From a virus (lineage: Duplodnaviria > Caudoviricetes), in IMG/VR virus record IMGVR_UViG_3300014205_000181, positions 32,001 through 96,000 of that record: 64,000 nt of DNA; one strand, 5' to 3'. The notes under the pieces are model-generated. The model was not told where the DNA came from and ran no database searches. It saw only the letters and a list, made by a program, of their open reading frames with translations. The position numbers and the translations under genes are program-made. Shown piece after piece: positions 5,228 to 25,684 of this stretch. Position 1 is the stretch's first letter, and every line of letters starts with the position of its first letter.

Positions 5228-5268
5228 TTGATTTATTTGATAAATGATTATAATATAATGCTATGTGT

Positions 5269-5352
5269 TTTGGGATAGGACGGCCATCCGACAAGTTGAG
5301 AATTCTCCCGCTCAATTTCCCAAATTTAAAATTTACGGGAACATATGGGGAT
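5269..5352 (+). ncRNA. Putative structured cis-regulatory RNA upstream of an HNH gene, copy 1
   Basis: P1 TTTGGGA/TCCCAAA; P2 GGA-CGGCCA-TCC; GACAAG; P3 TTGAG/CTCAA; loop TCCCG complementary to CGGGA at 5336. Confidence 0.7.
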
Positions 5353-5358
5353 ATGTAA

Positions 5359-6456
5359 ATGGCAAGAAAAGCAAATAAAGTAGAAGTAAAATGTGAAACG
5401 TGTGGCATCCAAAAGATTATCACTGAAAGAGCATATAACGACAATAAAACAAAGAGGTTTTATTGTAATTCTGAATGTAGAAGTAAAGATAGATTTAAAC
5501 AAATAGATGTTAGTTGTCCTAATTGTGGGAAAGAATTTTGGGTTCCAGAATCGCAATTTAATCGGACAAAATCTAAAAAGTTTTATTGTAGTGTAAAATG
5601 TAGGAGTGAACATTCTAATATTTTATCTATTTGCTCCGGTTGCGGAAAAGAGTTTATAAAGAAATCTTATGACAAAGGCGGTCTATTTTGCAGTAATGAA
5701 TGTTACTTTAAAAGCATAAGAAACAGGGTTAAAACAAATTGCGCTTTTTGTGGGAAAGAAATAGAAAAATCTAGACATCAATTTGATACTCAAGATAATT
5801 GTTTTTGCTCAAGGGAGTGTTTGTTTAGCTGGCAACGTGAAAATTGGCAAGGAGAGAGCCATCCTAATTATTCCCAAATTGAAATATCTTGTGGTTTTTG
5901 TGGTAAACAGATATCGAGAAATAAATGGCAGGTAGAGAATAGAAAATATCTCTTTTGTGATTCTTCTTGTCTTCACGATTTTATGAAAAGTGACAAGTCA
6001 TGGGGAAGAAAAGATAAACATTTAGTACCGTGTTCGAATTGTGGCAAAGAATTACTGGTTTCACCTGCTGAAGTGGATCGATATTGTAAACATTTTTGTG
6101 ATTCTTCTTGTAAGAGTGAATTTAATGTCGGAGAGAATAATCCTAACTGGAGAGGTGGATTATCATTCCAAGATTATGGGATGGAATTCAATGAAACACT
6201 AAAAGGGGTTGTTAGAAACAGGGATAATAGGACTTGTCAGTTATGTGGAGAGGTGGAAACGGATAGAAAGCATGACTGTCACCACATTGATTATTGCAAG
6301 GAAAATAATGTAGAAGAAAATCTTATTTCTTTATGTAGAGCGAATGGATGCCACTCAAAAACAAATGGGAATAGGAAGTATTGGGAAAAATATTTTAAGG
6401 AATTAATAGAACAAAAGTATAATAATCTTTTGGATGCTGCACGTTCAACAACATAA
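5359..6456 (+). CDS. HNH homing endonuclease with tandem CxxC…FCSxxC zinc-finger repeats
   Basis: Six CxxCG…(F/Y)C units; RDNRTCQLCG…CHHIDY…NLISLC…CH. Confidence 0.85.
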   Translation: MARKANKVEVKCETCGIQKIITERAYNDNKTKRFYCNSECRSKDRFKQIDVSCPNCGKEFWVPESQFNRTKSKKFYCSVKCRSEHSNILSICSGCGKEFIKKSYDKGGLFCSNECYFKSIRNRVKTNCAFCGKEIEKSRHQFDTQDNCFCSRECLFSWQRENWQGESHPNYSQIEISCGFCGKQISRNKWQVENRKYLFCDSSCLHDFMKSDKSWGRKDKHLVPCSNCGKELLVSPAEVDRYCKHFCDSSCKSEFNVGENNPNWRGGLSFQDYGMEFNETLKGVVRNRDNRTCQLCGEVETDRKHDCHHIDYCKENNVEENLISLCRANGCHSKTNGNRKYWEKYFKELIEQKYNNLLDAARSTT

Positions 6457-6485
6457 AACGTATAAAAATTTAGGAGGAATAAATT

Positions 6486-6971
6486 ATGAGTGGAAGACTT
6501 TTTCAAGAAGTTCATGTAGTAAATGCTATGCCTGCCGCTAATCAGGCGGCTTATGAAGATATTTTTAATGGTAGCCCAAGTACTGATATCGTTAACCTTG
6601 GTAAATATGAAAAATGTCTTTGGATTCTTCAGAAAGCTGCTGGTGCAACTGGTAGCGCTGTAATCACAGTTGGTTCTTGCGATACTGTTGTCCCAGGTAC
6701 TGCTACCGCAGTTGCCTTCAATTATTGGACTTGTACAAGTGGTGATACTTGGTCTGATATGCAGACCGCGACTTCCGCAGGTTTTACAACCACTGTAGGG
6801 ACTGACCAAGCATATGCGATTGAAATTAATAGTTCTGAACTTTATAGCACCGATAAGTATGCTAGAATGACCATGACAGAATCCGTTAACGATCCTGTAG
6901 ACGGTACTGTAGTCTGTATTATGGGTGGTGGTCGTTCTGTTCACGAAGTTTCTGACACCGCAATCGTTTAA
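6486..6971 (+). CDS. Putative capsid decoration / virion protein
   Basis: Ala/Thr-rich, strong RBS, follows the MCP once the HNH gene is discounted. Confidence 0.55.
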   Translation: MSGRLFQEVHVVNAMPAANQAAYEDIFNGSPSTDIVNLGKYEKCLWILQKAAGATGSAVITVGSCDTVVPGTATAVAFNYWTCTSGDTWSDMQTATSAGFTTTVGTDQAYAIEINSSELYSTDKYARMTMTESVNDPVDGTVVCIMGGGRSVHEVSDTAIV

Positions 6972-6999
6972 ACATAGCGGTAACCAGTAATAATCAACA

Positions 7000-7040
7000 C
7001 CCACTTACCTCTGATTATTTTAAATTGAGAGGTAAGTGGG
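7000..7040 (+). terminator. 13-bp hairpin (terminator or processing signal) after the capsid genes
   Basis: CCCACTTACCTCT/AGAGGTAAGTGGG perfect inverted repeat; weak U tract. Confidence 0.55.
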
Positions 7041-7048
7041 TTAATTGT

Positions 7049-7123
7049 AGCGGGTTGGAGAAGTAGGAACTCGTCAGGCTCATATCCTGAAGATCATAGG
7101 TGCAAATCCTATACCCGCTACCA
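7049..7123 (+). tRNA. tRNA with CAT anticodon (Met/fMet-like)
   Basis: Acceptor AGCGGGT/ACCCGCT, anticodon arm TCAGG-CTCATAT-CCTGA, encoded CCA; atypical T-loop TGCAAAT. Confidence 0.85.
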
Positions 7124-7145
7124 ATATCAATAGAGGATTTAAAAT

Positions 7146-7412
7146 TTGGGAAACGAATACGTTAAAGTCAAATTCCTTTCAGATTGGATGGGTCATCCCG
7201 AAGGTTCCACCCTAACAATCATGAAGGTAAAAGCGAATGAATTAAAGGCGAGGAATATTATTAAACTAGTTGATACAGTTGATTCTAAATCTTTGATTGA
7301 TTTAAATAATAAGATTAAAGAAGAAATTAAAAACCTTGATTCTCCGCCTATGAATAAAATGATAGATTCCCCTCAAATTAAAAAATCTAGTGGTAGACCG
7401 AAAAAGAAGTGA
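7146..7412 (+). CDS. Hypothetical head-module protein
   Basis: TTG start with GAGG RBS; basic GRPKKK tail. Confidence 0.6.
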   Translation: MGNEYVKVKFLSDWMGHPEGSTLTIMKVKANELKARNIIKLVDTVDSKSLIDLNNKIKEEIKNLDSPPMNKMIDSPQIKKSSGRPKKK

Positions 7413-7421
7413 ATTGATTAT

Positions 7422-7499
7422 CTGTGTGTAGCTCAGTCTTAGTAGAGTAACCGCCTTGGACGCGGGAAGTCGGAGGTTCGAATCCTCCCACCCAGACCA
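7422..7499 (+). tRNA. tRNA-Pro(TGG)
   Basis: Acceptor CTGTGTG/CACCCAG (one mismatch), anticodon loop CTTGGAC, GGTTCGAATCC, CCA. Confidence 0.85.
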
Positions 7500-7520
7500 T
7501 AATAGAATAGATTTTTAACG

Positions 7521-7596
7521 GCTGGATTAGCTCAGTTGGTAGAGCATCTGCCTTGTAAGCAGGCGGTCACGGGTTCGATGCCTGTATCCAGCTCCA
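7521..7596 (+). tRNA. tRNA-Thr(TGT)
   Basis: Canonical cloverleaf GCTGGAT…ATCCAGC-T-CCA; anticodon loop CTTGTAA. Confidence 0.95.
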
Positions 7597-7660
7597 CAAA
7601 TAGGCGGAACTGCCGCCAAGAAACGCAATAATATTTGCGTACAGATAGGAGGAATAAATT

Positions 7661-7978
7661 ATGCCTGTAACACTCGTAAAAAGTTCATGGGAAAGTGGGA
7701 ATTTAGTATTTAAGAAAGTAGGTACTTGGGCTACTACTGGGATTACTCTCGGTGAAGATGCAACCGGGTTAGATTTTAAATGTTTTGGCGATACTACTGG
7801 CAAATACATGCTTTGGGACCAGTCAGCCGACAAACTTATCATAATTGGGACAAGTGACTTGGGAACAAGCGCGGAGGCAGATGCATACACAGTCGGGGGC
7901 ACGGCGGGGGTAGATTTTGCTTCTGGCGCAATTACCAGCTTGCAGGTAATCAAGGGAATCGTGACATATGCCGCGTAA
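7661..7978 (+). CDS. Putative virion protein
   Basis: Strong RBS; Gly/Thr-rich; within the head module. Confidence 0.55.
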   Translation: MPVTLVKSSWESGNLVFKKVGTWATTGITLGEDATGLDFKCFGDTTGKYMLWDQSADKLIIIGTSDLGTSAEADAYTVGGTAGVDFASGAITSLQVIKGIVTYAA

Positions 7979-7999
7979 ATAGTTGACCTAATTACATAT

Positions 8000-8078
8000 T
8001 TGGGGATAGGGCTGTACACCTGACAAGAAGACTTAATCCATCTTCTTCCCCAATTTTATTTTAAGGACCATAGGAGGA
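8000..8078 (+). ncRNA. Putative structured cis-regulatory RNA upstream of an HNH gene, copy 2
   Basis: P1 TTGGGGA/TCCCCAA; P2 AGG-gctgtaca-CCT; GACAAG; P3 AAGA/TCTT; loop CTTAA complementary to TTAAG at 8061. Confidence 0.65.
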
Positions 8079-8084
8079 ATAACT

Positions 8085-8786
8085 ATGGAAAATGTATTAG
8101 GTAATAGGTACGGAAGATGGATTGTAATAAACAACAATCCGAGTATCAGGACGAAGAAAAGAAGATCGGTCATTTGTCAATGTTCATGTAAAAAGAAAAC
8201 CGTTAGGGAAGTAACTATTGTAGATTTGAAAATGGGTAAATCTAATTCTTGCGGATGTCTCCAAAGAGAAAGGGCAGCAGAATCGAATAGTACTCATGGG
8301 CTTTATAGGCACCCTTTGTATAATATCTGGGGTTTAATGATGGGAAGATGCTATAACAAAAATGGAGTTCAATATAAGGATTGGGGCGGTAGAGGAATAA
8401 TAGTTTGCGATGAGTGGAAATATAATCCCGAATTATTTATAGAATGGTGTTTAGAAAACGGATGGGTTCAGGGATTAGAAATTGATAGAGAAAACAATGA
8501 CGGGAATTATGAACCAAATAATTGTAGATTTGTAACATCTCAGATAAATATAATAAACATGAGATTAATTCAATCAAACAACACATCTGGATATAGGGGC
8601 GTTTATTATAATAAACGCAAAAGAAGTTATTGTTGCCAAATTGGATATAACAAGAAATATATTTTAAGTGAATCTGGCTTCAAAACACCAGAACAGGCGG
8701 CGAAAGCACGGGATATATTTATTATAAAAAACGATTTGCCTCATAAATTAAATTTCCCAGAACTAGCAATTAACGGGCCGCTATGA
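8085..8786 (+). CDS. HNH-type homing endonuclease with C-terminal AP2 domain
   Basis: SCGC, WGGRGIIVCDEW, IDRENNDGNYEPNNCRF, NTSGYRGV. Confidence 0.85.
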   Translation: MENVLGNRYGRWIVINNNPSIRTKKRRSVICQCSCKKKTVREVTIVDLKMGKSNSCGCLQRERAAESNSTHGLYRHPLYNIWGLMMGRCYNKNGVQYKDWGGRGIIVCDEWKYNPELFIEWCLENGWVQGLEIDRENNDGNYEPNNCRFVTSQINIINMRLIQSNNTSGYRGVYYNKRKRSYCCQIGYNKKYILSESGFKTPEQAAKARDIFIIKNDLPHKLNFPELAINGPL

Positions 8787-9394
8787 AAAATATTAATATA
8801 GCAATCGTTTTGCCTGTAAGCTGGGAATATTTACCAATACAATTTTTCAAATCCTGGATAACTTTAAAGAAACCAGAGCACTCTGTCATTATCCCAACGA
8901 GAGGAAGAATTGATGACATGCGGAATGCAGCAATAAACTCTGTGCTTAAAGATGGTAGTTTTAGCCACATTTTATTTTTAGATACAGACCACTTTCATCA
9001 TCCAGACACAATACCAAAATTGCTTTCTCACAATAAACACATTGTATCTGGATTAAGTTTTAGAAGGTCAGAACCGTATGACCCTATAATGTTCGTTAAG
9101 GATTACAAAAAATTTAAAAACATTACAGAGTGGAAAGATGGTGAGTTATTAGAGGTAGATGTAATAGGAGCGGCCTCATTACTCGTAGATGTAGAAGTTT
9201 TTAATAGAATGAAAGCTCCATATTTTGAAATGAACTACCCATATATGGATGGTGTTATTTCAGAAGATTTTGCGTTTTGTTTAAAAGCACAAGAACTTGG
9301 GTATGAAGTCTATTGTGATACAAGTTGCACGAATGATCATATTGGCACTTTGAATATCAATAAAAAAGTTTGGGAGAAATTTTGTGGAAAATAA
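8783..9394 (+). CDS. GT-A fold (GT2-like) glycosyltransferase, paralog 1
   Basis: LFLDTD (DxD), GAASLLVD, SEDFAFC. Confidence 0.8.
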   Translation: MKNINIAIVLPVSWEYLPIQFFKSWITLKKPEHSVIIPTRGRIDDMRNAAINSVLKDGSFSHILFLDTDHFHHPDTIPKLLSHNKHIVSGLSFRRSEPYDPIMFVKDYKKFKNITEWKDGELLEVDVIGAASLLVDVEVFNRMKAPYFEMNYPYMDGVISEDFAFCLKAQELGYEVYCDTSCTNDHIGTLNINKKVWEKFCGK

Positions 9395-9707
9395 AAAATT
9401 AAGTGTATTTGATAGAATTATACTTTTGAATATTTTACCTAATATTGAAGAAGTAGATAGAACGATGTTTGGACTTTATCATGATTTTTTAAAAGAGCTT
9501 TCGTTTACACAAGAAGAGCATGATAAGTTTCAAATCACCCACGATGAAAATGGACAAGTGAAATGGACAAACAATGAAGAAAAAGAATTTATCATTTGTA
9601 ATAAAGTACAAAATATAATTGTTGGTAGATTAAAAGCTTGCAAAGAAAAAGAATTGCTCCAAGAAGAACATTTGGAATTATATAATAAATTTGTTAATGA
9701 GGATTAA
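9384..9707 (+). CDS. Hypothetical protein
   Basis: ORF overlaps or abuts both neighbours. Confidence 0.6.
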   Translation: MENKKLSVFDRIILLNILPNIEEVDRTMFGLYHDFLKELSFTQEEHDKFQITHDENGQVKWTNNEEKEFIICNKVQNIIVGRLKACKEKELLQEEHLELYNKFVNED

Positions 9708-11276
9708 ATGATAACAATAAATGGGTTAGATAGCGATGTGTTTAATGATCGAACTCCGGTAGATTTTACGAGTTTGCCATCTGCTGCCAGTAATAACGGT
9801 GTAGTCCGTAGGTGCAACCCACTTGTTGCAGGCCAGGAGGATTTCTATGTGGTCAGCAACGGAACATCATGGCTGCCATATCACACTAAAAACCGGCCAT
9901 TTATGGATTTGACGTATGCTCGGAAGGTGCAGGCCGCGCCTGTTACAATCACATCAAATGCCACAAACACCTCTGCGACTGCTCCCCTGCTGTGGCCAGC
10001 AACAAACTTTGCTAGCGGAACAAGCAATGTTTTAACCGGTGGAAATTTTACATACACCAGATGCGGTAAAAATGTCAGACCATACTCTGCAACCGGAACT
10101 ACTCTGGTCACTGCCGATACCATTCAGTGGACTACAACCCCTACATATAACCGCTTGGAATTTGGTGTGAGGTTTTATCACACCGGCAGGTATTTGGACA
10201 TTAAAACTGCGAATGGCTTGATGATGGTTAAAGTTGATGGAGAATATACATCGCTAACGCCAATCGCAATCACTGGCATACTGTATAACTACATCGATTT
10301 TGGGTCTGTAGCCACCAGGCTTGTTGAGGTAGTTCTTACATCTGGGCTGTTCGGCGGCGTGTATACGGGGGCCACCGATACTATTTCATCAGCCCCAGCA
10401 AAGGGGCCGAAAACTGTAATAGTTGGCGATTCGTTTTCTGGTGGAACGGGCACATCAGCCGAGATGGGGCTGCGGGGGGCGTTCCCGGCATGGTTTGCTG
10501 ATCTGATTGGATGGGATGACGTAATCGTTTCAGGCATTGGATCAACCGGATATTTGGCGGATGCGTCAGGCGTTGCAACCACATACCGCCAAAGAGTGCA
10601 ACATGACGTGATTGATAACGCCCCAGACGTGATTGTTTTCACAGGTGGATACAATGACAGAGCACAGACAGGGGCGGCTATTTATGCAGAGGCCTGCTTG
10701 CTTTTTAAACAGGTACGTGATGCCCTCCCGTTTGCTGAAGTAATTGTTTTCTCACCATTCTGGTACAAGGGATGCACGTCGTTTAAATCAGCGGCTGCTG
10801 ACATTATACCAATACGTGATGCCCTGAGAGATGCGGCAGCATTGTATAGCTGCCATTTCTGTGACATGCTCGAAATGGATCTGCCTATAGGTACGCCACT
10901 GGCTGCTGCTGGGTTGCTGACCTCGAATATCACGGCTGGAGCAACCACGTTTGTTGCTGATACACTTTTCGCAGTGCCTGGAACAGTAACCATCGGTACT
11001 GACCGCGTGCGTTATTCATCTGTAAGCGGGACCGGTCCGTTCACCTACACATTACAGAGTGCTGGCACTATTTACCAGGCGCACAGTATCGGCGATGCCG
11101 TGACTCCGGTTGGCAACTCATTTTGGACCGGGACCGGAAATGCCGCTGTGCCTACCGGGATAGGCAACTGCGATCTGATTACCACCTCTGCTGTGGATAT
11201 TCATCCTACCGACACCGGCCACAGGATGATCGGAGAGTATGTGGCGAAGAGGTTGCATGAGATATTGTCACAGTAG
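9708..11276 (+). CDS. SGNH/GDSL hydrolase-domain protein, probably virion-associated
   Basis: Blocks VIVGDSFS, GIGSTGY, GGYND, DIHP; beta-rich N-terminus; visibly higher GC. Confidence 0.8.
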   Translation: MITINGLDSDVFNDRTPVDFTSLPSAASNNGVVRRCNPLVAGQEDFYVVSNGTSWLPYHTKNRPFMDLTYARKVQAAPVTITSNATNTSATAPLLWPATNFASGTSNVLTGGNFTYTRCGKNVRPYSATGTTLVTADTIQWTTTPTYNRLEFGVRFYHTGRYLDIKTANGLMMVKVDGEYTSLTPIAITGILYNYIDFGSVATRLVEVVLTSGLFGGVYTGATDTISSAPAKGPKTVIVGDSFSGGTGTSAEMGLRGAFPAWFADLIGWDDVIVSGIGSTGYLADASGVATTYRQRVQHDVIDNAPDVIVFTGGYNDRAQTGAAIYAEACLLFKQVRDALPFAEVIVFSPFWYKGCTSFKSAAADIIPIRDALRDAAALYSCHFCDMLEMDLPIGTPLAAAGLLTSNITAGATTFVADTLFAVPGTVTIGTDRVRYSSVSGTGPFTYTLQSAGTIYQAHSIGDAVTPVGNSFWTGTGNAAVPTGIGNCDLITTSAVDIHPTDTGHRMIGEYVAKRLHEILSQ

Positions 11277-11405
11277 TTGTGGACGGTATACGAGGATGGC
11301 GACGAGCTACCGTATGTGCCGCAATATATAGACCAAACTATGTGACGGTAGATGATTTATGATATTTTGTCAGATTAAATAATTAAATTATAAGAGGGAC
11401 AATAT

Positions 11406-11729
11406 ATGAGAGTGAGTAGAGAGACAGCAGCATCCGGGGCAATATCACTAACAGTTGATCCTGGTATTCCATTTAGGTTAATAGCCATTAAAGTGCATTT
11501 GAGCGCAGTCGGTGGGGCTGGCAATTTAACCGCAACGACAGATTCAATTATCGGGGCTACTTATGACGCAGTATTAACTCTTCAAGATATGACCGCCGTA
11601 ACAGATTATATTTATGTACCAGACAACCCGATCCCATTTGTAGATGGTGATAAAGTTGTAATTGCATGGGCTAATGCAAGTAATGTTACTTATGGGATAG
11701 AAGCGTTTTGGGTTCCAGACAATATATAA
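11406..11729 (+). CDS. Putative virion protein
   Basis: RBS; beta-rich composition. Confidence 0.55.
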   Translation: MRVSRETAASGAISLTVDPGIPFRLIAIKVHLSAVGGAGNLTATTDSIIGATYDAVLTLQDMTAVTDYIYVPDNPIPFVDGDKVVIAWANASNVTYGIEAFWVPDNI

Positions 11730-11732
11730 TCC

Positions 11733-13523
11733 ATGATACTTGAATCTTCCATAAAAAGATTTTCTGGGATATCTTCTGATTCCAAGCCAGATACCGATGT
11801 TCCATCTGGTTCTGAATTTTTTGAATTAGACACAGGAAATACTTTTAAATTCCATGATTCATCATGGTACCCATTTGGGATATCGATTAATGATGGTAAT
11901 GGATTTAATATTGGTATAAATAGCCCATTGCCTACTAATGGAGATTCTGTTTATTATAAAGATATTGATTTAGATAGGTGTAATATAACTGGATGGACAG
12001 GGACAGTACTTGATTTATTCACTGGTGTTCATTCTGGTATAGAAAATACAGGTTCTAGTAATCCTAAAACAATTATTATTCATTTTGAAAGAACGATTGA
12101 GTTTGGTTCAGTCACCATAGGTAGTGCAGATGGAGGTAATTTTAGTAATGTCAAAGTGACTGTTAGAAATCCAGGTATAATTGAAACGATAGTTGTAGAT
12201 GAGTCTAGCGATTCCACTAATCTAACAAATAAAACGTATAACTTTGAAGATATACACAGGGTAGAATCATTAAAAATAGAATTTTATACCGCTGATATAG
12301 TTGAAGTAACACAAATATTTATTCCAAAAATTAAAACTGTAAAAATTGACCCAAATAATAAAAGTCACCCTATACATTTTATAGATACTGATCATTCTGG
12401 AAGAGCTGCTCAGAATTCAATTTTTGGAGATAGGATAGTAGGATGGAAAAAAACTTCAATGGCATTCCAATTTAATTATGGCTTTAGAACAAGAGATTTT
12501 ACATTAACACAAACAAATGGAGGAACTGTAACTTCTTCTGATAGTGTTATTATATTATCTACAAGTACGAATGTTGGTGGAGTTGCTGCTGCTGAAACAG
12601 TAGATTCTTTAAGGTATGTCCCAGGTAATGAAGCGTACGCATTTTTTACAGCTATATTTTCTACTCCAAAGGTAAATTCATATCAAAGAGCCGGGATATT
12701 TGACTCTAAAAATGGATTTTTTATCGGGTATGAATGTACTGATTTTAAAATTACTAGAAGAATAAATCAAATTGACTACCCACAAACTATTGATGTTTCA
12801 AAAGTTCTACCATTAGAAGCATTTGATCCAACAAAAGGTAATGTATATAAAATAAGTTTCGGATATCTCGGATTTGCAACAATAAATTTTGAAATAATGA
12901 ATCCAGAGGGAGAATGGAATTCAATTGGGCAGATTGAATTCCCAAATGCATATACTGAGACTAGCATTGCAAGTACAAATCTTCCAATGAGGGGAGAAGT
13001 AGGCAATACAGGTAATAATACAGATATTGTAGTTAAAAGTGGAAGCATTACTGCTGGTATTATTGATGGCGGTGATGATGACCCAAGCGCAAGAAGTTAT
13101 ACATATAGCAGGGGAACTGCCACAATATCTGCTGGAGATAACATGTTGGTTGCTTTTAGAAATATAACTACATTTGCAGGTAGAACGAATAGGGTAAAGG
13201 CAATAGCGCAACTATTGACTTCTGCGACGGAAGGAACAAAGCCAGTTAGGTGGAAGATTGTTTTCAATCCAACATTTACAAATACCCCAACATGGGCAGC
13301 AATAAATTCAGACTCAATAATTGAGTATTCAACAAATGCAACTATAACATTTGGGACTGGAGAAATAGGGACAGAATGGAATATGGCAAAAGCAGATTCA
13401 TTTTTTGAAGATGTAGAATCTCTTGGAGGGCATATGTATCCTGGTCAAACTGCTGTAGTTGTCGTCAATTCTGCTGGATCAAACGATACTGAATTTTCTA
13501 TTAGATGGAAGGAGCTATTTTAA
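11733..13523 (+). CDS. Large putative virion appendage / beta-sandwich protein
   Basis: 596 aa, Ser/Thr/Gly-rich, within the head module. Confidence 0.55.
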   Translation: MILESSIKRFSGISSDSKPDTDVPSGSEFFELDTGNTFKFHDSSWYPFGISINDGNGFNIGINSPLPTNGDSVYYKDIDLDRCNITGWTGTVLDLFTGVHSGIENTGSSNPKTIIIHFERTIEFGSVTIGSADGGNFSNVKVTVRNPGIIETIVVDESSDSTNLTNKTYNFEDIHRVESLKIEFYTADIVEVTQIFIPKIKTVKIDPNNKSHPIHFIDTDHSGRAAQNSIFGDRIVGWKKTSMAFQFNYGFRTRDFTLTQTNGGTVTSSDSVIILSTSTNVGGVAAAETVDSLRYVPGNEAYAFFTAIFSTPKVNSYQRAGIFDSKNGFFIGYECTDFKITRRINQIDYPQTIDVSKVLPLEAFDPTKGNVYKISFGYLGFATINFEIMNPEGEWNSIGQIEFPNAYTETSIASTNLPMRGEVGNTGNNTDIVVKSGSITAGIIDGGDDDPSARSYTYSRGTATISAGDNMLVAFRNITTFAGRTNRVKAIAQLLTSATEGTKPVRWKIVFNPTFTNTPTWAAINSDSIIEYSTNATITFGTGEIGTEWNMAKADSFFEDVESLGGHMYPGQTAVVVVNSAGSNDTEFSIRWKELF

Positions 13524-13682
13524 ATGAAATTAGGATATAGAATTTCTGGGTTACACGTAGAAAATGTTATAGGTAGTATAATTAAATTTTCTATATTTTC
13601 TTTACCATTCGCGATTTGGAAAATGTCTGAAGTGTTTATTGTATTTGTTAATATTATAAATTCTTTGAAGTAAGTGAATGAT

Positions 13683-15154: not shown

Positions 15155-15161
15155 GTGGATA

Positions 15162-16045: not shown

Positions 16046-16069
16046 AGTTTCTGCAATTTTTACCGATAA
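16043..16069 (+). promoter_or_regulatory. Sigma28-like promoter TAAAGTTT-N11-ACCGATAA at the start of the glycan island
   Basis: One mismatch to the FliA consensus with canonical spacing; fills the intergenic gap. Confidence 0.65.
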
Positions 16070-16076
16070 GCAATTC

Positions 16077-17275: not shown

Positions 17276-17362
17276 TATTTCAGAAACTAATGAAGGATTT
17301 TATGACGCTATCAAATCAACTAATACTGATGAGACTAATAATTTATCGGGTGAGTTAATTAA

Positions 17363-18220
17363 ATGAAAATTTTGGTCTTAGGTGCTAGTGGGATGCTTGG
17401 CAGTTCTATGCTAAATGTAATGAGCGAAAATAAAAAATTAGATGTATTCGGAACAGTAAGGGGAAAATCAGATAAGAAATTTTTTACCCAACAAATCCAA
17501 GATAAAGTTCTCCATAACGTAAATATAGAAAATGAAAATACATTAAATGGATTGTTCGTTTCTTTAAAGCCAGACGTAGTTATTAATTGTGTTGGGATAG
17601 TAAAGCAAATTGATGACGCGAATAGTCCGTTAAAATCTATAGCTATAAATTCTTTGTTCCCCCATAAATTGAAATCATTATGCGATTCTTTTGATTCTAG
17701 GTTAATACATATCAGTACAGATTGTGTATTCTCTGGTAAATATGGGATGTATAAAGAAGAAGATGTCTCTGACTGTACAGATTTTTATGGCAAGACTAAA
17801 TATTTAGGAGAGGTTATTTCAGATAGATCGTTAACGATAAGAACCTCTATAATTGGCCCAGAGTTAAAAACGAACCATGGATTACTTAACTGGTTTTTAA
17901 GTCAAGGAAAAGAATGCAATGGGTATAGCAATGCGGTTTTTAGTGGTTTCCCAACTGTAGTATTGTCCCAGATATTAAGAGATATCATTATTCACGATGA
18001 GTCGATTAGTGGGTTATATAACATTGCTTCTGAAAAAATTTCAAAATTTGATTTACTGAGATTAATAGCTGATATTTATAAAAAAGATATTAAAATTAAT
18101 GACTATAAAGATTTTACAATCGATAGGTCTTTAGATGGTTCTAAATTTAATTTAAAGTCTGGGTACATAACTCCTAATTGGGAAAGCATGATTAATACAA
18201 TGAGAGGTATTAATGTTTAG
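17363..18220 (+). CDS. RmlD-like SDR reductase (WbvR/QnlA type)
   Basis: GASGMLG, HISTDCVFSG, YGKTK; 285 aa with no cupin extension. Confidence 0.8.
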   Translation: MKILVLGASGMLGSSMLNVMSENKKLDVFGTVRGKSDKKFFTQQIQDKVLHNVNIENENTLNGLFVSLKPDVVINCVGIVKQIDDANSPLKSIAINSLFPHKLKSLCDSFDSRLIHISTDCVFSGKYGMYKEEDVSDCTDFYGKTKYLGEVISDRSLTIRTSIIGPELKTNHGLLNWFLSQGKECNGYSNAVFSGFPTVVLSQILRDIIIHDESISGLYNIASEKISKFDLLRLIADIYKKDIKINDYKDFTIDRSLDGSKFNLKSGYITPNWESMINTMRGINV

Positions 18221-19223
18221 TAACAAAACGGTATTAATAACAGGTGGAACGGGATCATTTGGGAGCGTTGTCGCGAAACGGTTACTGACTAACAACGTAA
18301 AAGAAGTTCGGATATTTAGCCGCGACGAAAAGAAACAAGAAGATATGAGAATCTCGGTGAACGATGCGAGATTGAAATTCTATATTGGTGATGTCAGAGA
18401 TTACGGTAGTGTTGATTCTGCGATGATAGGGGTCAATTATGTATTCAATGCCGCCGCACTTAAGCAAGTACCTTCATGCGAATTTTTCCCAATGGAGGCG
18501 ATAAAAACCAATGTTATTGGTGCCGATAATGTGATGAGTTCTGCAATAAAGAATAATGTAGAGCGGGTTGTTATTTTAAGTACTGATAAATCTGTTTATC
18601 CAATTAATGCAATGGGCATGACGAAAGCTATTTCTGAAAAGGTAATGGTCTCAAAGGCGATGAAACAACGTGCTGGAGAAACGGTATTATGTGCTACTAG
18701 ATATGGTAATGTAATGGCTTCCCGTGGATCTGTAATTCCCTTGTTTGTATCTCAATTAAAAAATAATGAGGAATTAACGGTAACAGACCCAGATATGACA
18801 AGATTTCTTATGTCCTTAGACGATTCAATAGATTTGGTATTTTATGCTTTGATAAATGGTGGACAAGGTGATATTTTTGTTCAAAAGTCTCCAGCATCGA
18901 CCGTGGGTGTTTTGGCCCAAGCATTAAAAGAAATGTTTGCAAAAGATAATAATATAAAAATTATTGGAACTCGACACGGAGAAAAATTATTTGAATCACT
19001 TATTTCAAGGGAAGAGATGGTAAGAGCCGTTGATCATGGGGATTATTATTGTATTAATCCGGATAATAGGGATTTAAATTATAATAAGTATTTCGATTCA
19101 GGAAATACGAATATTGATAAGATACAAGATTACACTTCACATAATACTACTAGATTGAGCATTGAAGAAACTAAAGAATTGTTGTTTTCATTGGATTATA
19201 TTAAGGAAGAGTTGAATGCTTAA
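18213..19223 (+). CDS. fnlA: UDP-GlcNAc 4,6-dehydratase/5-epimerase (FnlA/WbjB/CapE family)
   Basis: TGGTGSFG, FSRDEKKQ, AALKQVPSCEF, STDK, TRYGNVMASRGSVIP, GTRHGEK. Confidence 0.9.
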   Translation: MFSNKTVLITGGTGSFGSVVAKRLLTNNVKEVRIFSRDEKKQEDMRISVNDARLKFYIGDVRDYGSVDSAMIGVNYVFNAAALKQVPSCEFFPMEAIKTNVIGADNVMSSAIKNNVERVVILSTDKSVYPINAMGMTKAISEKVMVSKAMKQRAGETVLCATRYGNVMASRGSVIPLFVSQLKNNEELTVTDPDMTRFLMSLDDSIDLVFYALINGGQGDIFVQKSPASTVGVLAQALKEMFAKDNNIKIIGTRHGEKLFESLISREEMVRAVDHGDYYCINPDNRDLNYNKYFDSGNTNIDKIQDYTSHNTTRLSIEETKELLFSLDYIKEELNA

Positions 19224-20322
19224 GGTGATGACAATTGTTGGGACTAGGCCCGAATTAATAAAAATGTCTAGGGTTATAGATAAATTAGATAAAAATACAA
19301 ATCATATTTTAGTACATACTGGTCAGAATTATGACTATGAGTTGAATCAGATTTTTTTCGACGAACTTAAAATAAGAAAACCAGATTATTTTTTAGAAGT
19401 TGCTGGTGAAAATACAGCACAAACGATAGCAAACATTATCGAAAGAACAGATAAGGTAATAGAGGCAGAAAGTCCAGATGCTTTTGTAATATACGGAGAT
19501 ACCAATTCGTGTCTTTCTGTAATTTCAGCCAAAAGGAGAAAAGTGCCTGTATTCCATATGGAAGCAGGCAATAGGTGTTTTGATCAAAGAGTTCCAGAAG
19601 AATTAAATAGAAAGATAATAGACCAGTTATCTGATATTAATATTGTTTTATCTGATAGAGCTAGAGAAAATCTTGTACTAGAAGGAATAAGACCAGAAAC
19701 TATATTTAAGTCTGGTTCTCATATGAAAGAAGTTTTAGATTACTACATGTCTGATGTGTATAGGTCAGACGTACTAAATAGATTAAAATTAAAAAGTTCA
19801 AGTTATTTTGTGTTTAGTTTTCATAGGGAAGAAAATATTGACGACATAGATAATTTAAAAACTATAATTAAATCGATAAAGGCAGTATCTGCAACATATA
19901 ACCTCCCTGTTATAGTATCCACTCACCCTAGAACAAAGAAAGCATTAGATGATTTAAATATTAGTACAGATGAAAAGATTATTTTTAGTAAGCCGTTTGG
20001 GTTATTTGATTACATAAAGTTGCAAATCAATGCAAAATGTGTTGTCTCAGATAGCGGTACAATAACAGAAGAGAGTTCTCTACTCGGTTTTCCTGCTGTT
20101 ACTATTAGGAATACTCATGAAAGGCCAGAGGGAATGGATAATGGTGTTTTAATCATGTCTGGTGTAGATACTGGGTCAATAATGGATTCGGTAGATGTTG
20201 CTATAAAATGCGGCAAGCCACATGCGATTGATGAATACAATAAACAAGATGTATCTACCCATATATTAAAATTGATATATAGTCATACTGGATACATTAA
20301 TAGAACCGTATGGCATAAATAA
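19216..20322 (+). CDS. Non-hydrolysing UDP-HexNAc 2-epimerase (FnlC/WbjD/QnlB family)
   Basis: GTRPELIK, HTGQNYD, GDTNS, HMEAGNR, SDSGTITEE, ERPEG. Confidence 0.9.
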   Translation: MLKVMTIVGTRPELIKMSRVIDKLDKNTNHILVHTGQNYDYELNQIFFDELKIRKPDYFLEVAGENTAQTIANIIERTDKVIEAESPDAFVIYGDTNSCLSVISAKRRKVPVFHMEAGNRCFDQRVPEELNRKIIDQLSDINIVLSDRARENLVLEGIRPETIFKSGSHMKEVLDYYMSDVYRSDVLNRLKLKSSSYFVFSFHREENIDDIDNLKTIIKSIKAVSATYNLPVIVSTHPRTKKALDDLNISTDEKIIFSKPFGLFDYIKLQINAKCVVSDSGTITEESSLLGFPAVTIRNTHERPEGMDNGVLIMSGVDTGSIMDSVDVAIKCGKPHAIDEYNKQDVSTHILKLIYSHTGYINRTVWHK

Positions 20323-20353
20323 TGATAACGGTTAATGTGTTATTAGTGAAGCA

Positions 20354-21178
20354 ATGAAAAGAATACCTAAGATAGTTCATATGTATTGGGACGGAACACC
20401 TATGTCTAAACTACAGACTTTTACTGTAACTTCTTTTTGTAGGTTAAATCCAGATTGGAAAGTAATAGTACATCTTGATAAATTAAGGTATCGTGGGAAC
20501 AATAAATATATACCTTCCTATGTACGAGAAGATTATTTCCATATAGTGAAGGATAATAAACAAGTTAATATAGATGAAGTAAATCTTTCTGATTATGGCG
20601 TCAGTGGAGATTTACATCCGATATTAAGATCAGATATATTGAGGTATCATTGGCTATATAATGAGGGAGGTGTTTGGTCAGATTTTGATGTTATTTGGTT
20701 AAAACCTATTCATTATTTAAGCACTATAGCTGGAACTGATTCATTTGGGGTTACTTTATGCATGTACGATGGGAAAAAGAAACATCATAATGTAAGTGTA
20801 TTGGTCAGTTCCAAAGGCCACGAATTTTATAGGTATGCCATATATTTATGCAATGAAATAAAAAATAAAATAACAGAAAACCCGGACCATCAGGAGTTCG
20901 GGAATTCAATTTTTAATAAAGCATTCCCTAAGCCTGAAGACGCCTTGAGTAAATTCCCAGATATGATTAATTTAAAATATGAAACATTTTTCCCGTATTC
21001 TATTTTTAATATGGACGCGCTGTATTTAAGTACGGACTTAACGTATATAACAGACTCGGTTATTGGTGTACATTGGTTTAACGGCCACAAGTATAGTAAG
21101 GACTACGTAAATAACAATGGTTTCAGTAGAGATTGTAGTATGACAGAAATCATTAAAAATGAGGGTTATAATGACTAA
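20354..21178 (+). CDS. GT32-like DxD glycosyltransferase
   Basis: IPKIVHMYW, RSDILRY, GGVWSDFD. Confidence 0.8.
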   Translation: MKRIPKIVHMYWDGTPMSKLQTFTVTSFCRLNPDWKVIVHLDKLRYRGNNKYIPSYVREDYFHIVKDNKQVNIDEVNLSDYGVSGDLHPILRSDILRYHWLYNEGGVWSDFDVIWLKPIHYLSTIAGTDSFGVTLCMYDGKKKHHNVSVLVSSKGHEFYRYAIYLCNEIKNKITENPDHQEFGNSIFNKAFPKPEDALSKFPDMINLKYETFFPYSIFNMDALYLSTDLTYITDSVIGVHWFNGHKYSKDYVNNNGFSRDCSMTEIIKNEGYND

Positions 21179-22004
21179 AAGAAATATTTTTTTATTTAAG
21201 GCAGAAGGAAAAGAAAATTTCGGAGAATACTTATGTAAGAGTGTTATACAAAAGATGGGGTTTGGACTTAATAATTATTCTAATGTTAACCAGATAACAG
21301 AACCAATTGATTATATAATGACTGGGATAGGTGGATTTCTAAACAATGAAATCCATTCTTTATATTTAACTAAAGCCAAGAAGTGGTATGTGTGGGGTAG
21401 CGGAGTTCATTGCATTCCTTTACCTTGGCATAAATTATCGGAAGACATCATAAAGAACAAATGTATTATAACTGCTTTAAGAGGTCCGATGACCAGGGAT
21501 TATTACGGGATCAAAGATGATATTACACTAGGTGATGCTGGCTACTTAGCTTCTTATTTTTTTAAATTCCCAGTAAATGAGAAGAAGAAGAATGTACTCA
21601 TTAATCATCATTATGATAATGTTAAAAAACCGATGAAAGGAATAGATATTCATATATCGTCTTTGATGGACTCAGACATTAATGGTTCTTTTGACAATCA
21701 GTTTAAATACATATTGAATAGTATATGTAACGCAAATATAGTAATGACTAGCTCTATGCACGTAGCTATAGTTGCTTATTCTTATGGTATTCCCTTTGCA
21801 ATGGTAGCCAAGAGAGAGACTGATTTAGTTAAAGAGTGGAAGTGGCATGATACATTATTGAATATGGGCATAACAAAGAAAATAGTATTGTGTGAGAGTA
21901 TAGAAGATGGTTGGGCTTGGTGGAACAGTGTTCAGAAAGATATACGTCCAATTACTAAAGAATATCAGGGAACAATAATAAAGGCATTTCCCGTAATACT
22001 ATGA
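21159..22004 (+). CDS. Polysaccharide pyruvyl-transferase family protein
   Basis: NFGE, VWGSG, LRGPMT, GDAG, TSSMHVAIVAYSYGIP; true start may be the internal MTKRN. Confidence 0.75.
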   Translation: MRVIMTKRNIFLFKAEGKENFGEYLCKSVIQKMGFGLNNYSNVNQITEPIDYIMTGIGGFLNNEIHSLYLTKAKKWYVWGSGVHCIPLPWHKLSEDIIKNKCIITALRGPMTRDYYGIKDDITLGDAGYLASYFFKFPVNEKKKNVLINHHYDNVKKPMKGIDIHISSLMDSDINGSFDNQFKYILNSICNANIVMTSSMHVAIVAYSYGIPFAMVAKRETDLVKEWKWHDTLLNMGITKKIVLCESIEDGWAWWNSVQKDIRPITKEYQGTIIKAFPVIL

Positions 22005-22822
22005 AGTGTTATTTAGCATATTCAGCAAATCCAGATGTAAGACATAAAGCGTCAACTGGGGGATTTTGCAAAGAATTTTTACGTTTTTGCATAGAGGGGA
22101 AAATAATAGATAAGTCAATACTAACAATTCTTGGAGAAGGAGAAGAAGCTTTAATCCCAAGAACTATAATTACTGATGATATAGAGAAGATAATGTCTAC
22201 GAAGAGTAATTCTATATATGATAAAACTAATCCATTATCCATTTTATCTAGTTTGAATAAAAACGAAAGTTATATTTTTGTAGGTTTGCCATGTCATATT
22301 TACTCAGTTAAAAAATATTGCAGCAAACACAATATCCGAATTATAACAATATCTTTATTCTGCAATCATACATCAGACAATAAATATTATAAAAGTGTTT
22401 TAGATAAAGCAAACCTGAGTGAAATAGATGTAAAACATTTCGAATATAGAGGATCTGGATGGCCTGGGTTTGAAAAAATAATTACCAATGAAGACCAGGA
22501 AATTAAGATTGACCATATAGAGGGATGGGATAATTATGTAAAAAAATATATGCAAATGCTACCAAAATGCAAGGTGTGCACCAGAATGATTTCGGAAGAA
22601 GCAGACATATGTGTTGGCGATGCATGGATGCAAAAAGTATTAAATAACGATAGCAATGGAACTAATATGGTTGTGGCGATGACCACAACAGCGGATAAAC
22701 TTGTAATGGATTGTTGTAAAAGTGGATATATTCATATTGAACATTTAGATATATCTGAATTTGAGGCCCAGAATAATAGGTCTGTTAAAATTAAGAAAGA
22801 TAGAAGAGAGGCTTATGAATAG
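22001..22822 (+). CDS. FrhB/FdhB (F420 hydrogenase beta subunit)-like Fe-S protein of the type found in polysaccharide loci
   Basis: STGG, FVGLPCHI, SLFC, YRGSGWPG, CKVC, ADICVGDAW. Confidence 0.8.
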   Translation: MKCYLAYSANPDVRHKASTGGFCKEFLRFCIEGKIIDKSILTILGEGEEALIPRTIITDDIEKIMSTKSNSIYDKTNPLSILSSLNKNESYIFVGLPCHIYSVKKYCSKHNIRIITISLFCNHTSDNKYYKSVLDKANLSEIDVKHFEYRGSGWPGFEKIITNEDQEIKIDHIEGWDNYVKKYMQMLPKCKVCTRMISEEADICVGDAWMQKVLNNDSNGTNMVVAMTTTADKLVMDCCKSGYIHIEHLDISEFEAQNNRSVKIKKDRREAYE

Positions 22823-23675
22823 CTGGAGTATGTCGATCCCTAAGGTTCTCAATTTGTATTGGGGTAAAAATAAACCATTATCTTTTATGAAGTACCTGAC
22901 CGCTTTATCTTTTGTGAAACATAACCCAGATTGGGAGATAATAGTTTATTACCCATCTGTGGTAGAAAGTAAAATATTGTGGGATAGCAATGAACAAAAA
23001 GAATATAATTATGATGACATTGATTATTTTGATAGATTAAGTAATATTAAAAATTTATCTTTAAGGAAAACCGAGTTTGGTGAATTTTCAAACTTATCAG
23101 AAGTACATAAATCAGATCTCATTAGGCTTAAAATATTATCAACATCAGGTGGGGTTTGGTCAGATTTTGATATTTTTTATACAAAATCGATTAATGAATT
23201 CGATCTAAATAATACTGACAATAAATTAAAAGATACATTTGTTTGCTTCACTAGTTATCATAGTATCGGGTTTTTAATGAGTTCTGGGAATAATAAATTC
23301 TTTGAAGAACTATATAAAATGGCAATATATAATATAAAAAATGCTGAAAATCTACAATACCAAAATTTAGGTAGGGATTTATATAATTATTTTTTTAAAT
23401 ATAATGATTATAAAGCGATTAATTATTCAATTAAATTCAATTGTAACATTGCAAACATTACATTTGAAACGGTATATCCACTACAATGGAACCAGATAGA
23501 TTTAATATTTGGCGATAACAAACAGCGATTACCAGAAAATACAGTTGGCGTACATTGGTTTGCTGGATCTCCAATAACATCTAGTGTAGAGAATAAAATT
23601 ACAGAAGAAAATATCCACCTTAATAAAGATAAATTCCTTCTAAAACTAATGTGTGAATTACTTGAAGAAATATAG
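22815..23675 (+). CDS. GT32-like DxD glycosyltransferase, paralog of 20354..21178
   Basis: IPKVLNLYW, KSDLIRL, GGVWSDFD, GVHWF. Confidence 0.8.
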   Translation: MNSWSMSIPKVLNLYWGKNKPLSFMKYLTALSFVKHNPDWEIIVYYPSVVESKILWDSNEQKEYNYDDIDYFDRLSNIKNLSLRKTEFGEFSNLSEVHKSDLIRLKILSTSGGVWSDFDIFYTKSINEFDLNNTDNKLKDTFVCFTSYHSIGFLMSSGNNKFFEELYKMAIYNIKNAENLQYQNLGRDLYNYFFKYNDYKAINYSIKFNCNIANITFETVYPLQWNQIDLIFGDNKQRLPENTVGVHWFAGSPITSSVENKITEENIHLNKDKFLLKLMCELLEEI

Positions 23676-24462
23676 TATTGTGTTTCCTTATTATAAAAGA
23701 TCTAGTCAACTCCATAATTCACTTATTTCGTTCCAACATCACTATAAAGATAGAAATGATTATGAAGTAATTGTCGTTGAAGATATTAAAAACTATAATA
23801 ATGCAGAAGAACACGAAAAACTATTAAAAGTATTAAAGTTTTATACACAAAATGCCGATAAGGTAGTTAATATAAAACTGATAAAATCGAGCTTTGAGAA
23901 TTGTTATAATCCAGCTCCTTTATTTAATTTAGGAGTGAAAAACGCTAGTGGCGAATATTTAATTATAACAAATCCAGAGATATTCCATAAAGATAATATA
24001 TTGAGTGCATGTGATGATATATTGTCTAAATACGATGACCATTATATAGTATTTTCTTGCCTTAATGTTGATGAGTATCCTAAAAGTGTATCTGATTTTG
24101 ATGAATTTACTTTTAAACCAAAAATGTGGTATCAACATTTAAAATATAGAAATGCTTTATTCCATTTCTGTTCCTGCTTGTCGAAGAGACAGTATGAAGA
24201 AATTGGGGGATTTGATGAAATATATTCATTAGGTATTGCATACGATGATGACGATTTCAGAGAAACAATAAATAAAGCAGGGATTCAATTCATAGCAACT
24301 GATTCATTTTTAACATTGCATCAAGATCATGGAAGTGTGTTTGATAAATTGCCTGATTATGAAAAGAGATTGAATAGAAATAAAGCGTTGTATTATTTGA
24401 AGAAGCAAAATAAGTCAAGTGAGTATATTAACCAATTTTTAGGAGAGAATTTTGGTGGATAA
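23653..24462 (+). CDS. GT2-family glycosyltransferase
   Basis: YSIVFPYY, YEVIVVED, NLGVKNASGEY, IGGFDE…AYDDDDF. Confidence 0.8.
   Translation: MNYLKKYSIVFPYYKRSSQLHNSLISFQHHYKDRNDYEVIVVEDIKNYNNAEEHEKLLKVLKFYTQNADKVVNIKLIKSSFENCYNPAPLFNLGVKNASGEYLIITNPEIFHKDNILSACDDILSKYDDHYIVFSCLNVDEYPKSVSDFDEFTFKPKMWYQHLKYRNALFHFCSCLSKRQYEEIGGFDEIYSLGIAYDDDDFRETINKAGIQFIATDSFLTLHQDHGSVFDKLPDYEKRLNRNKALYYLKKQNKSSEYINQFLGENFGG
23834..23861 (+). promoter_or_regulatory. Sigma28-like promoter box TAAAGTTT-N12-GCCGATAA, intragenic, upstream of the tail tube gene
   Basis: Both boxes match the consensus exactly. Confidence 0.5.
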
Positions 24463-25135
24463 AGAGAACATCCGTTTGGGAATTGGGCTTCCATTGGTAG
24501 ACGACAAGGTACACACTGCATTTTTAGATTCCTTTGTGATGATGAAGAAGCCAAATTTCGTATATATTAGGCCAACATTCCCATCAATGCAGATTGATGT
24601 AATTAGAAATCAATTGGTTAAGCAAGCATTAGAATCTGGTTGTACTCATTTGTTGATGCTAGATACGGATCAGGTATACCATGACCCAGATATGATTAGT
24701 AAAATGCTGGAACACGATAAAGATGTTGTATCAGCTATCGTACATAGGCGCTATCCTGGCTTTGATCCCATCACTCTAAGGGGTGAACCTGGGAAGTACT
24801 TAATGGTTCCAGATGAAGAAATTTTAGCAGCAAGAGAATTAGATAACCACCTAATTGAAATAGACGCGACAGGTGGAGGTTGTTTACTTTACAAGACTGA
24901 AGTATTTTTAAAAATCCCGCCAGCTTGGTTTGAATTTTCAAGAACTGAAGGCGGCGATGTCATAGGAGAGGATGTAAATTTTTGTTATAAATTGAAGCAA
25001 AATGGATATAAGATATATTGTGATACGTCTATTGATATTGGGCATTTAAGCAATTTAGAAATAAATTGGGCGACATATCGGCTTTACGGCCACTTAAAGA
25101 AACTACAAAAAGAAGATGAAAATAAGAAATTATAA
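24452..25135 (+). CDS. GT2-like glycosyltransferase, paralog 3
   Basis: LMLDTD, ATGGGCLL, GEDVNFC, IYCDTS. Confidence 0.8.
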   Translation: MVDKENIRLGIGLPLVDDKVHTAFLDSFVMMKKPNFVYIRPTFPSMQIDVIRNQLVKQALESGCTHLLMLDTDQVYHDPDMISKMLEHDKDVVSAIVHRRYPGFDPITLRGEPGKYLMVPDEEILAARELDNHLIEIDATGGGCLLYKTEVFLKIPPAWFEFSRTEGGDVIGEDVNFCYKLKQNGYKIYCDTSIDIGHLSNLEINWATYRLYGHLKKLQKEDENKKL

Positions 25136-25168
25136 ATAAGCAATTATAAATAAGCAGGAGGTATAAAT

Positions 25169-25585
25169 ATGGCACAAGCATATGCTGGACGTGAAACACA
25201 GGTAACATTGAATGGTGGCACAATTAGTCTTTTAGGGTCTTGGACTCTTAATGGGCAGGAAGTTGAGCTTTTGGAGCAAACTGCTTTCGGAGACACCTAT
25301 CGTCAGTTTTTGCCCGGTTTGAAGAGCGGAGGCACTATTTCTTTTAACGGTTTGTACGATGGCACCGATACTGCGGGCCAAACCGCCCTTCGGAATTATA
25401 ACGCTAACAATACTAGCGTGACTGACATTAAGTTATACGTGGATGATACCAGCTATTATACGCCGAGTACCACAAATCCATTATCATATTGCTGGGTGAC
25501 TGGCTTTGATGTTGGCTCTGAGGTCGGTGGCTTAGTCACTGCTACATTTTCACTCGCCGTGTCTGGCAAGATGGTACTCGTATAA
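25169..25585 (+). CDS. Major tail tube protein
   Basis: TAFGDTYRQFLPGLKSGGTISF; strong RBS; upstream of the chaperones and TMP. Confidence 0.8.
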   Translation: MAQAYAGRETQVTLNGGTISLLGSWTLNGQEVELLEQTAFGDTYRQFLPGLKSGGTISFNGLYDGTDTAGQTALRNYNANNTSVTDIKLYVDDTSYYTPSTTNPLSYCWVTGFDVGSEVGGLVTATFSLAVSGKMVLV

Positions 25586-25599
25586 TAAATTAAATAATT

Positions 25600-25680
25600 G
25601 TGGGATAGGACGGCCATCCGATAAGCATAGACCTAGCTATGTTTCCCACTCTTTACAATTTCTAGGTTTCTGCTAGGAGA
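25600..25680 (+). ncRNA. Putative structured cis-regulatory RNA upstream of an HNH gene, copy 3
   Basis: P1 GTGGGA/TCCCAC; P2 GGA-CGGCCA-TCC; GATAAG; P3 CATAG/CTATG; loop ACCTAG complementary to CTAGGT at 25662. Confidence 0.7.
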
Positions 25681-25684
25681 AAAT

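Follow-up and report, generated by a model that had tools for sequence, protein, structure and literature searches.

The 64,000-nt stretch of tailed-phage DNA analysed here (the window; positions 32,001 to 96,000 of IMG/VR record IMGVR_UViG_3300014205_000181) carries three short RNA leaders, all on the + strand, each lying directly ahead of a nuclease gene. Leader 1 (5267..5326) stands between the gene for an HK97-type major capsid protein (3965..5227) and that for an HNH endonuclease with zf-FCS/TRASH zinc fingers (phrog_1271; 5359..6456). Leader 2 (7998..8055) follows the gene for a 105-aa protein (7661..7978), which has no family match and is 54% identical to the gene in the same position of the syntenic viral contig L038, and it precedes an HNH endonuclease gene (phrog_374; 8085..8786) with a weak AP2 match. 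Leader 3 (25597..25651) separates a tail tube gene (25169..25585; weak Pfam Phage_tail_2 match) from a gene encoding a NUMOD3 + HNH endonuclease (25685..26551). Judged by sequence comparison, these leaders are a diverged form of a motif already catalogued in Rfam, int-alpA (RF02996), and not a new family; we think it fairly probable that they act in cis as two-state translational brakes on the genes that follow them.

Fold and relatives of the leaders

The three elements had been picked out in a first-pass annotation, which noted 21 identical nucleotides in copies 1 and 3 and P3 stems that differ in all three copies yet stay paired; these points read as claimed. The elements, of about 57 nt, have the common order P1, UA, P2, GAYA, P3, P1', and RNAfold predicts the identical three-way junction for each of them. 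In leader 1, P1 is UUUGGGA/UCCCAAA, P2 is GGA..UCC with the loop CGGCCA, J2/3 is GACA, and P3 is AGUUGAG/CUCAAUU with the loop AAUUCUCCCG. Leader 2 holds the palindrome UGUACA inside its P2 loop and has the P3 loop CUUAAUCCA, while leader 3 has the same 5' half as leader 1, followed by P3 AGCAUAG/CUAUGUU with the loop ACCUAG. The order of stems drawn earlier is retained, and the boundary of P3 has to be moved: the AG of GAYAAG pairs with YU and is thus part of P3, so that P3 would stack directly on P1. The window has three occurrences of the pattern GGGATAGG-N5-14-GAYAAG, and 100 shuffles of the window have none. A covariance model made from the three copies matches only those three within the window; the weak matches that the first model gave at 62595, 38634, 34850 and 63648 are in coding sequence and without P2 and P3, and were dismissed as chance. 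With model R2, which was built from window-type copies only, leaders 1, 2 and 3 score 69.9, 52.1 and 62.5 bits.

Pattern scans of IMG/VR followed by a structural filter gave at least 72 non-redundant GGGAUAGG-type relatives, which are the set behind all counts out of 72 below; the first two of these scans were too loose, and only about 17 of some 230 loci were real. The contigs of the relatives span 28% to 71% GC, several of them contain two or three copies, and one narrow sequence subtype alone is present in more than 118 viral contigs. Among 120 loci from a pattern scan of genomes, 36 passed the structural filter, and these lie in bacterial genomes or metagenome-assembled genomes (MAGs), mostly of Alphaproteobacteria, with some Planctomycetota, Bacteroidota and others; no archaeal match from the same scan passed. 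One viral contig with a leader copy, L272, also carries a group I intron (5483-5814; 88 bits).

The compensatory change that the first-pass annotation proposed to look for is abundant. In a model-based alignment of 85 distinct phage sequences, 98.3% of positions are paired, and double-sided changes number 307, compared with 85 +/- 7 in shuffles; slid controls pair at only 39-58%. About 24 bases close to the junction are nearly invariant across hosts of this whole GC range. L038 has 54% protein identity to the window in the flanking gene and 49% in the HNH gene. Leader 2 is retained there; its P3 loop is identical, its site A (see below) is different, and its P2 loop is different and still palindromic.

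A tabulation of the neighbouring genes of the relatives revealed the expected association with nucleases. Downstream open reading frames (ORFs; 65, non-redundant) encode HNH, GIY-YIG or EndoVII-type nucleases in about 34 cases, tail assembly chaperones in nine (one GC-rich lineage and one other) and glycosyltransferases in three, and 19 are without assignment. Upstream, most of the genes serve the virion or packaging (major tail, capsid, portal, terminase, sheath and similar), and the stop codon of the upstream gene lies a median of 12 nt before P1.

Many of the leaders are also preceded by a candidate promoter. Of 34 nuclease leaders, 17 have an exact TATAAT, often behind TGn, that ends 6-17 nt and mostly 8-9 nt ahead of GGGA; the corresponding counts are 0/9 for chaperone leaders, 3/29 for others and 1/72 at a control position. 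In the window, leader 1 has a candidate -10 box of two overlapping exact TATAAT hexamers (5249..5259), ending 17 and 12 nt before GGGA, and leader 3 has one (25581..25586), which ends 15 nt before GGGA and overlaps the end of the tail tube gene; leader 2 has none. This suggests that many nuclease cassettes bring a promoter that would start the transcript at P1, and transcripts from a promoter so placed would carry the whole leader. A terminator scan called no intrinsic terminator after P1 at the window copies.

Two candidate partners for the P3 loop

In all three leaders the P3 loop has complements in the segment between P1' and the start codon, and those reported earlier at 5336, 8061 and 25662 are there as described. 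We refer to this first complement as site A. In leader 1 (platform 5336..5361), site A is CGGGAA (5336-5341), and the Shine-Dalgarno (SD) sequence GGGGAU (5347-5352), which forms a second complement, site B, lies ahead of the start codon at 5359-5361. Leader 3 (25662..25687) has CUAGGU as site A (25662-25667) and GCUAGG as site B (25672-25677), with the start codon at 25685-25687. In leader 2 (8061..8088), site A is UUAAG (8061-8065), and the loop matches the SD, AGGAGG (8072-8077), only as UCC/GGA. The earlier claim that an SD follows the first complement and could pair with the same loop is sound in general and has to be qualified for copy 2, where the match is only 3-4 nt. A further feature, absent from the earlier description, is that the SD is placed in the loop of another hairpin, P4. 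In leader 1 this hairpin spans 5341-5356 and has the loop GGGG; in leader 3 it is UUUCU/AGAAA (25667-25682), with site B in the loop; and in leader 2 it is CCAUAG/CUAUGG (8068-8088), enclosing both the SD and the start codon (8085-8087).

The same arrangement is found in most relatives. At least two separate complements of at least 5 nt to the leader's own loop are present in 59/72 leaders, compared with 23% of loop-swapped pairs, and the mean duplex energy is -9.55 kcal/mol with the own loop and -6.25 kcal/mol with a swapped loop (Wilcoxon p ~1e-11). The P3 loop thus covaries with its own downstream leader and SD among the 72 relatives, as the first-pass annotation had anticipated for a pseudoknot. 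Site A begins a median of 8 nt past P1'. Site B ends a median of 6 nt ahead of the start codon and contains GGA, GAG or AGG in 54 of 59 leaders, a position and content that identify it as the SD. The spacing between P1' and the start codon varies little (median 39 nt), with ORF starts falling within 30-49 nt. A P4 hairpin of at least 4 bp surrounds site B in 41 of the 59 leaders, formed by many different stem sequences that are still paired, and its mean length of 4.6 bp compares with 3.4 bp in shuffles (p 1e-6).

Sites A and B use the same bases of the loop (overlap 0.92), so that the two pairings should be mutually exclusive and compete. Which site is favoured differs between groups of genes: in nuclease leaders site B is more often the stronger (16 vs 8), and the chaperone leaders have a far stronger site A (-11.4 vs -7.7), as would be expected if site A tunes output upward.

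A second loop of the junction also has an unusual composition. The P2 loops, which in the window lie at 5281-5290, 8012-8022 and 25611-25620, are self-complementary over at least 4 nt in 55/72 leaders, compared with 34.5 +/- 3.8 in shuffles, and over at least 6 nt in 33, compared with 10.4. Variants include GGCC, UGUACA, AGCU, CUGCAG, GCGGCCGC and others, and between the window and L038 UGUACA is exchanged for UUCGAA by paired substitutions that keep the palindrome. These loops may therefore form a kissing-dimer interface, that is, an RNA-RNA contact between two copies of the transcript. About a quarter of the P2 loops (GGCA and CGACGG types) are not palindromic, and copies in one genome usually differ in this loop. 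Heterodimers between copies of the same genome were also considered and were rejected for that last reason.

The int-alpA motif and further features of the contig

The element had not been recognised as a named family in the first-pass annotation, and in this respect that annotation has to be revised. The window copies themselves give no int-alpA match in Rfam, either at the gathering threshold (35.8 bits for RF02996) or at E<=10, and at the gathering threshold Rfam finds three tRNAs only across the window. When RF02996 was run on the phage's own genome, a single match above threshold appeared (38.1 bits; contig 29893-29961), about 2 kb before the window. Four close GGGAUAGG-type relatives (L294, L313, L308 and L328) also exceed the threshold, with 36.5-39.8 bits, and a further group (L051, L302, L286, L283, L323, L109 and L272) falls below it, with 29-35.4 bits; for GC-rich GGGAUAGG-type relatives the range is 29.3-39.8 bits. 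In the opposite direction, model R2 detects the Rfam-positive paralog at 34.9 bits (E 5e-8, filters off), and this reciprocal detection shows homology of the leaders to int-alpA. The junction agrees as well, with J1/2 = UA, J2/3 = GAnAA, P3 opening with G and (C/U)U before P1', and the parts of the printed RF02996 consensus are arranged likewise (P1, UA, P2, GAAAA, P3, CU, P1' and a tail ending in AgGG). In addition, a clear int-alpA member in L160 (43.9 bits) shows the same layout of site A, P4 and site B before a GIY-YIG nuclease gene.

The int-alpA motif reportedly originates from the comparative-genomics survey of Weinberg et al. 2017. Its name derives from a neighbourhood of integrase and alpA genes, which is not a structural criterion. 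That neighbourhood was not found here: the window genes are HNH nucleases, and those of the relatives are nucleases, tail chaperones and glycosyltransferases. The window leaders share with int-alpA the three-stem junction and a tail ending in a GG-rich segment. They differ from it in being AT-rich and sub-threshold, in having P1 fixed as GGGA/UCCC, and in their context of late structural operons and homing endonucleases instead of integrase or alpA. In the Rfam model the 3' tail is unpaired, so that the two-site platform, P4 and the promoter lie outside the family as catalogued. By the first-pass annotation's own criterion, a match to Rfam removes most of the novelty at the family level. A literature search found no functional study of int-alpA, and no paper on the platform with its two sites, on the association with nucleases or on the AT-rich subtype. 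Since neither megablast of window positions 5000-9000 nor blastn of the leader of a GC-rich relative gave a match to named phages, no cultured phage example was identified.

The Rfam-positive locus is a fourth copy (contig 29891-29950), lying just outside the window after a portal gene and before an EndoVII/HNH-like ORF. It was missed by the first whole-genome search with both models and was found only with filters off and with the Rfam model; like about a quarter of the relatives, it has a non-palindromic P2 loop. The earlier count of three copies before late-region nucleases is correct for the window and becomes four in the 144.5-kb contig, where all copies are on the + strand of the structural module, after the portal, major capsid, 105-aa protein and tail tube genes, and none was found elsewhere. 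In the region of this fourth copy (L454:1392-1551, equal to contig 29891-30050), an ATG with a perfect SD (L454:1485) opens a frame of only 21 codons, and the EndoVII/HNH-like ORF (L454:1547-2551) extends upstream in the -1 frame into a CxxC zinc-finger stretch that lacks a start codon. An A6 run immediately behind the ATG marks the point where both frames meet, which could reflect an error of assembly, the decay of the gene or programmed slippage.

The replication module holds nuclease genes on the - strand that are leaderless: an HNH gene (56325-57026) that is a paralog of 8085-8786 and starts 1 nt after the preceding ORF, a GIY-YIG homing endonuclease gene (45370-46128), and an ORF with only an N-terminal HNH-family match (47699-48481). 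The earlier statement that the minus-strand nucleases lack a copy was borne out for the HNH and GIY-YIG genes, also with filters off. The absence of the leader from this module fits the view that a nuclease gene needs it when placed in a heavily expressed late operon.

Some features of the phage are separate from the leaders. The head-gene module contains three + strand tRNA genes, Met-CAT (7049-7123), Pro-TGG (7422-7499) and Thr-TGT (7521-7596), which are located after nuclease 1 and before the 105-aa gene. A pattern of the sigma28/FliA promoter type, TAAA-N14-17-(G)CCGATA, occurs nine times in the window against about one expected, with sites at 1148, 3071, 16043, 18502 and 23834 on the + strand and 44207 and 48752 on the - strand; it is probably a promoter class of the phage's own, separate from the leaders. 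The contig belongs to a 3.7-Mb MAG of 301 contigs, and its capsid protein is at most 37% identical to that of any named phage, which suggests an uncharacterised large tailed phage that was either binned with the MAG or is integrated in it.

Proposed translational control and rival explanations

The mechanism that we favour as reasonably probable is a cis-acting brake with two states. The three-way junction, with P3 stacked on P1', would hold out a P3 loop that resembles the 3' tail of 16S rRNA (UCC, CUCC, CACC and similar) and that could pair either with a decoy, site A, or with the true SD, site B. In the OFF state a kissing contact between the loop and site B in the loop of P4 would cover the ribosome-binding site, and in the ON state a pseudoknot of the loop with site A would leave it free. 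The balance between them would set low or conditional translation for genes that sit inside heavily expressed late operons. These would mainly be selfish HNH or GIY-YIG nucleases, often with their own -10 promoter and a transcript starting at P1. The data establish the fold with its covariation, the two complements of the loop, their positions and the genes around them; we infer that pairing represses translation and that site A serves as the decoy, and some factor may shift the balance. Part of the earlier interpretation is supported, namely a portable structured leader in late structural operons, enriched before nucleases and in keeping with a limit on their translation. Its suggestion of a ribonucleoprotein partner of the cognate HNH protein is unlikely, as genes behind this type of leader encode HNH, GIY-YIG and EndoVII-like nucleases that are unrelated, and also tail chaperones and glycosyltransferases.

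Several observations weigh against this mechanism. The folding z-scores of the window copies are ordinary (-0.55 to -1.85), so that support for the fold comes from covariation and not from energy. About 18% of leaders are without two clear sites, and in leader 2, with its short loop-SD match, the task may fall instead to the P4 hairpin that covers the start codon. Sites A and B differ little in stability (-8.0 and -7.7 kcal/mol), and the net effect, whether brake, neutral or switch, is therefore not readable from the sequence. The strong site A of the chaperone leaders was seen in one lineage, which amounts to a single observation. Finally, the strong conservation of the junction bases exceeds what a passive scaffold seems to need, which may leave room for a bound factor.

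This last point is the basis of a rival that would refine the brake and does not exclude it, in which the junction binds a small molecule, an ion, a host protein such as a ribosomal protein, or a second copy of the RNA, and so decides between sites A and B. The near-invariant bases, the resemblance of two equally stable and exclusive pairings to an expression platform, and P2-loop self-complementarity far above that of shuffles, with the palindrome kept between the window and L038, all speak for such a sensor. We nevertheless regard it as rather unlikely, given that the controlled genes have no common metabolic theme, that their context points to no ligand, and that the quarter of P2 loops without a palindrome includes the fourth copy and loops within a genome usually differ. 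In riboswitches such as the SAM-II and preQ1-II types, the expression platform conceals the SD within a pseudoknot. The leaders are like them in having a conserved folded core and an alternative pairing that involves the SD. They are unlike metabolite riboswitches in that the downstream genes are functionally mixed, share no pathway and suggest no ligand, and Rfam riboswitch models gave no match to the window copies at the gathering threshold or at E<=10.

The remaining explanations are far less probable. That the element acts as DNA (a promoter or operator, a nuclease target or a recombination site of the cassette) with the RNA fold incidental is very unlikely: its hairpins are imperfect DNA palindromes and the cassettes are mobile, but strand-specific G-U pairs are frequent (41/85 at the second pair of P3, 27/85 at the first pair of P2), and covariation between the loop and the SD has no rationale in DNA. 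The J2/3 sequence CCGAUAA does resemble the -10 box of the sigma28-type sites enriched in this phage; as a -10 box of that type it was rejected because the leaders have no TAAA upstream at the spacing that such a box requires. A small RNA released to act in trans on other transcripts is also highly improbable. RF02996 is typed 'Gene; sRNA' in Rfam and many copies have their own -10 box, but the window copies have no terminator, the ORF begins at a fixed 30-49 nt, and the P3 loop covaries with the SD of that very ORF. Least credible of all is a self-cleaving ribozyme or processing signal that would part the nuclease mRNA from the late structural transcript, an idea raised in the first-pass annotation. 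The site between a structural and a mobile gene and the compact junction with its conserved core would suit it, as would a RAGATH-18 RNA near the leader in one relative's contig. No copy in the window matches any Rfam ribozyme family at E<=10, including the hammerhead, twister, twister-sister, pistol, hatchet and HDV-like models, and in leaders with the promoter, whose RNA would begin at P1 in any case, cleavage would achieve nothing. The RAGATH-18 RNA itself (L143:2344-2415) scores 69.5 bits, which exceeds its threshold, and is 2 kb away from an int-alpA-type leader. Resemblances to the cores of hammerhead, guanidine-III and glutamine riboswitch RNAs were likewise considered and dropped for want of a match in Rfam.

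By analogy, the closest tested precedent for the proposed brake is the sequestration of ribosome-binding sites in homing endonuclease genes of T-even phages, where RNA structures hold down I-TevI, I-TevII, I-TevIII, segB and mobE of Aeh1 (reviewed in PMC2988022). The leaders would be like these structures in placing folded RNA over the SD of a selfish nuclease gene in a phage operon, with a promoter borne by the cassette, and the purpose, nuclease synthesis that is kept low or timed, would be the same. The T-even hairpins are simple and local, have no sequence homology, and contain a late promoter inside the structure, so that late transcripts escape (PMC2988022). In the leaders, by contrast, a conserved three-way junction would bring the anti-SD loop from about 40 nt away, a decoy would compete with the SD, and the TATAAT, 6-17 nt ahead of P1, lies upstream of the whole fold and not within it. 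Between the SD and an upstream segment of the leaders, complementarity and covariation are strong, and the two may pair.

A more far-reaching proposal, which we offer tentatively and consider rather improbable, is that int-alpA-type leaders are a widespread bistable phage switch, in which the junction or a dimerising P2 loop would sense a signal and move the anti-SD loop; the concentration of the transcript, a host factor or an ion would be candidates for that signal. If true, expression of selfish nucleases and of some structural genes would be conditional and more than just damped. In Rfam, int-alpA is an orphan to which no function is assigned; the data suggest that it controls translation through an anti-SD loop and a competing decoy. 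The family is much wider than the Rfam model detects, with prophage-like copies in several bacterial phyla besides those in viral contigs, and is a common accessory of free-standing homing endonuclease cassettes. At about 95 nt with its platform, the device is small enough for direct testing and may be reusable as a tunable regulator of translation. The idea from T4 of a translational leash on selfish nucleases would thereby be extended to a conserved and portable RNA device.

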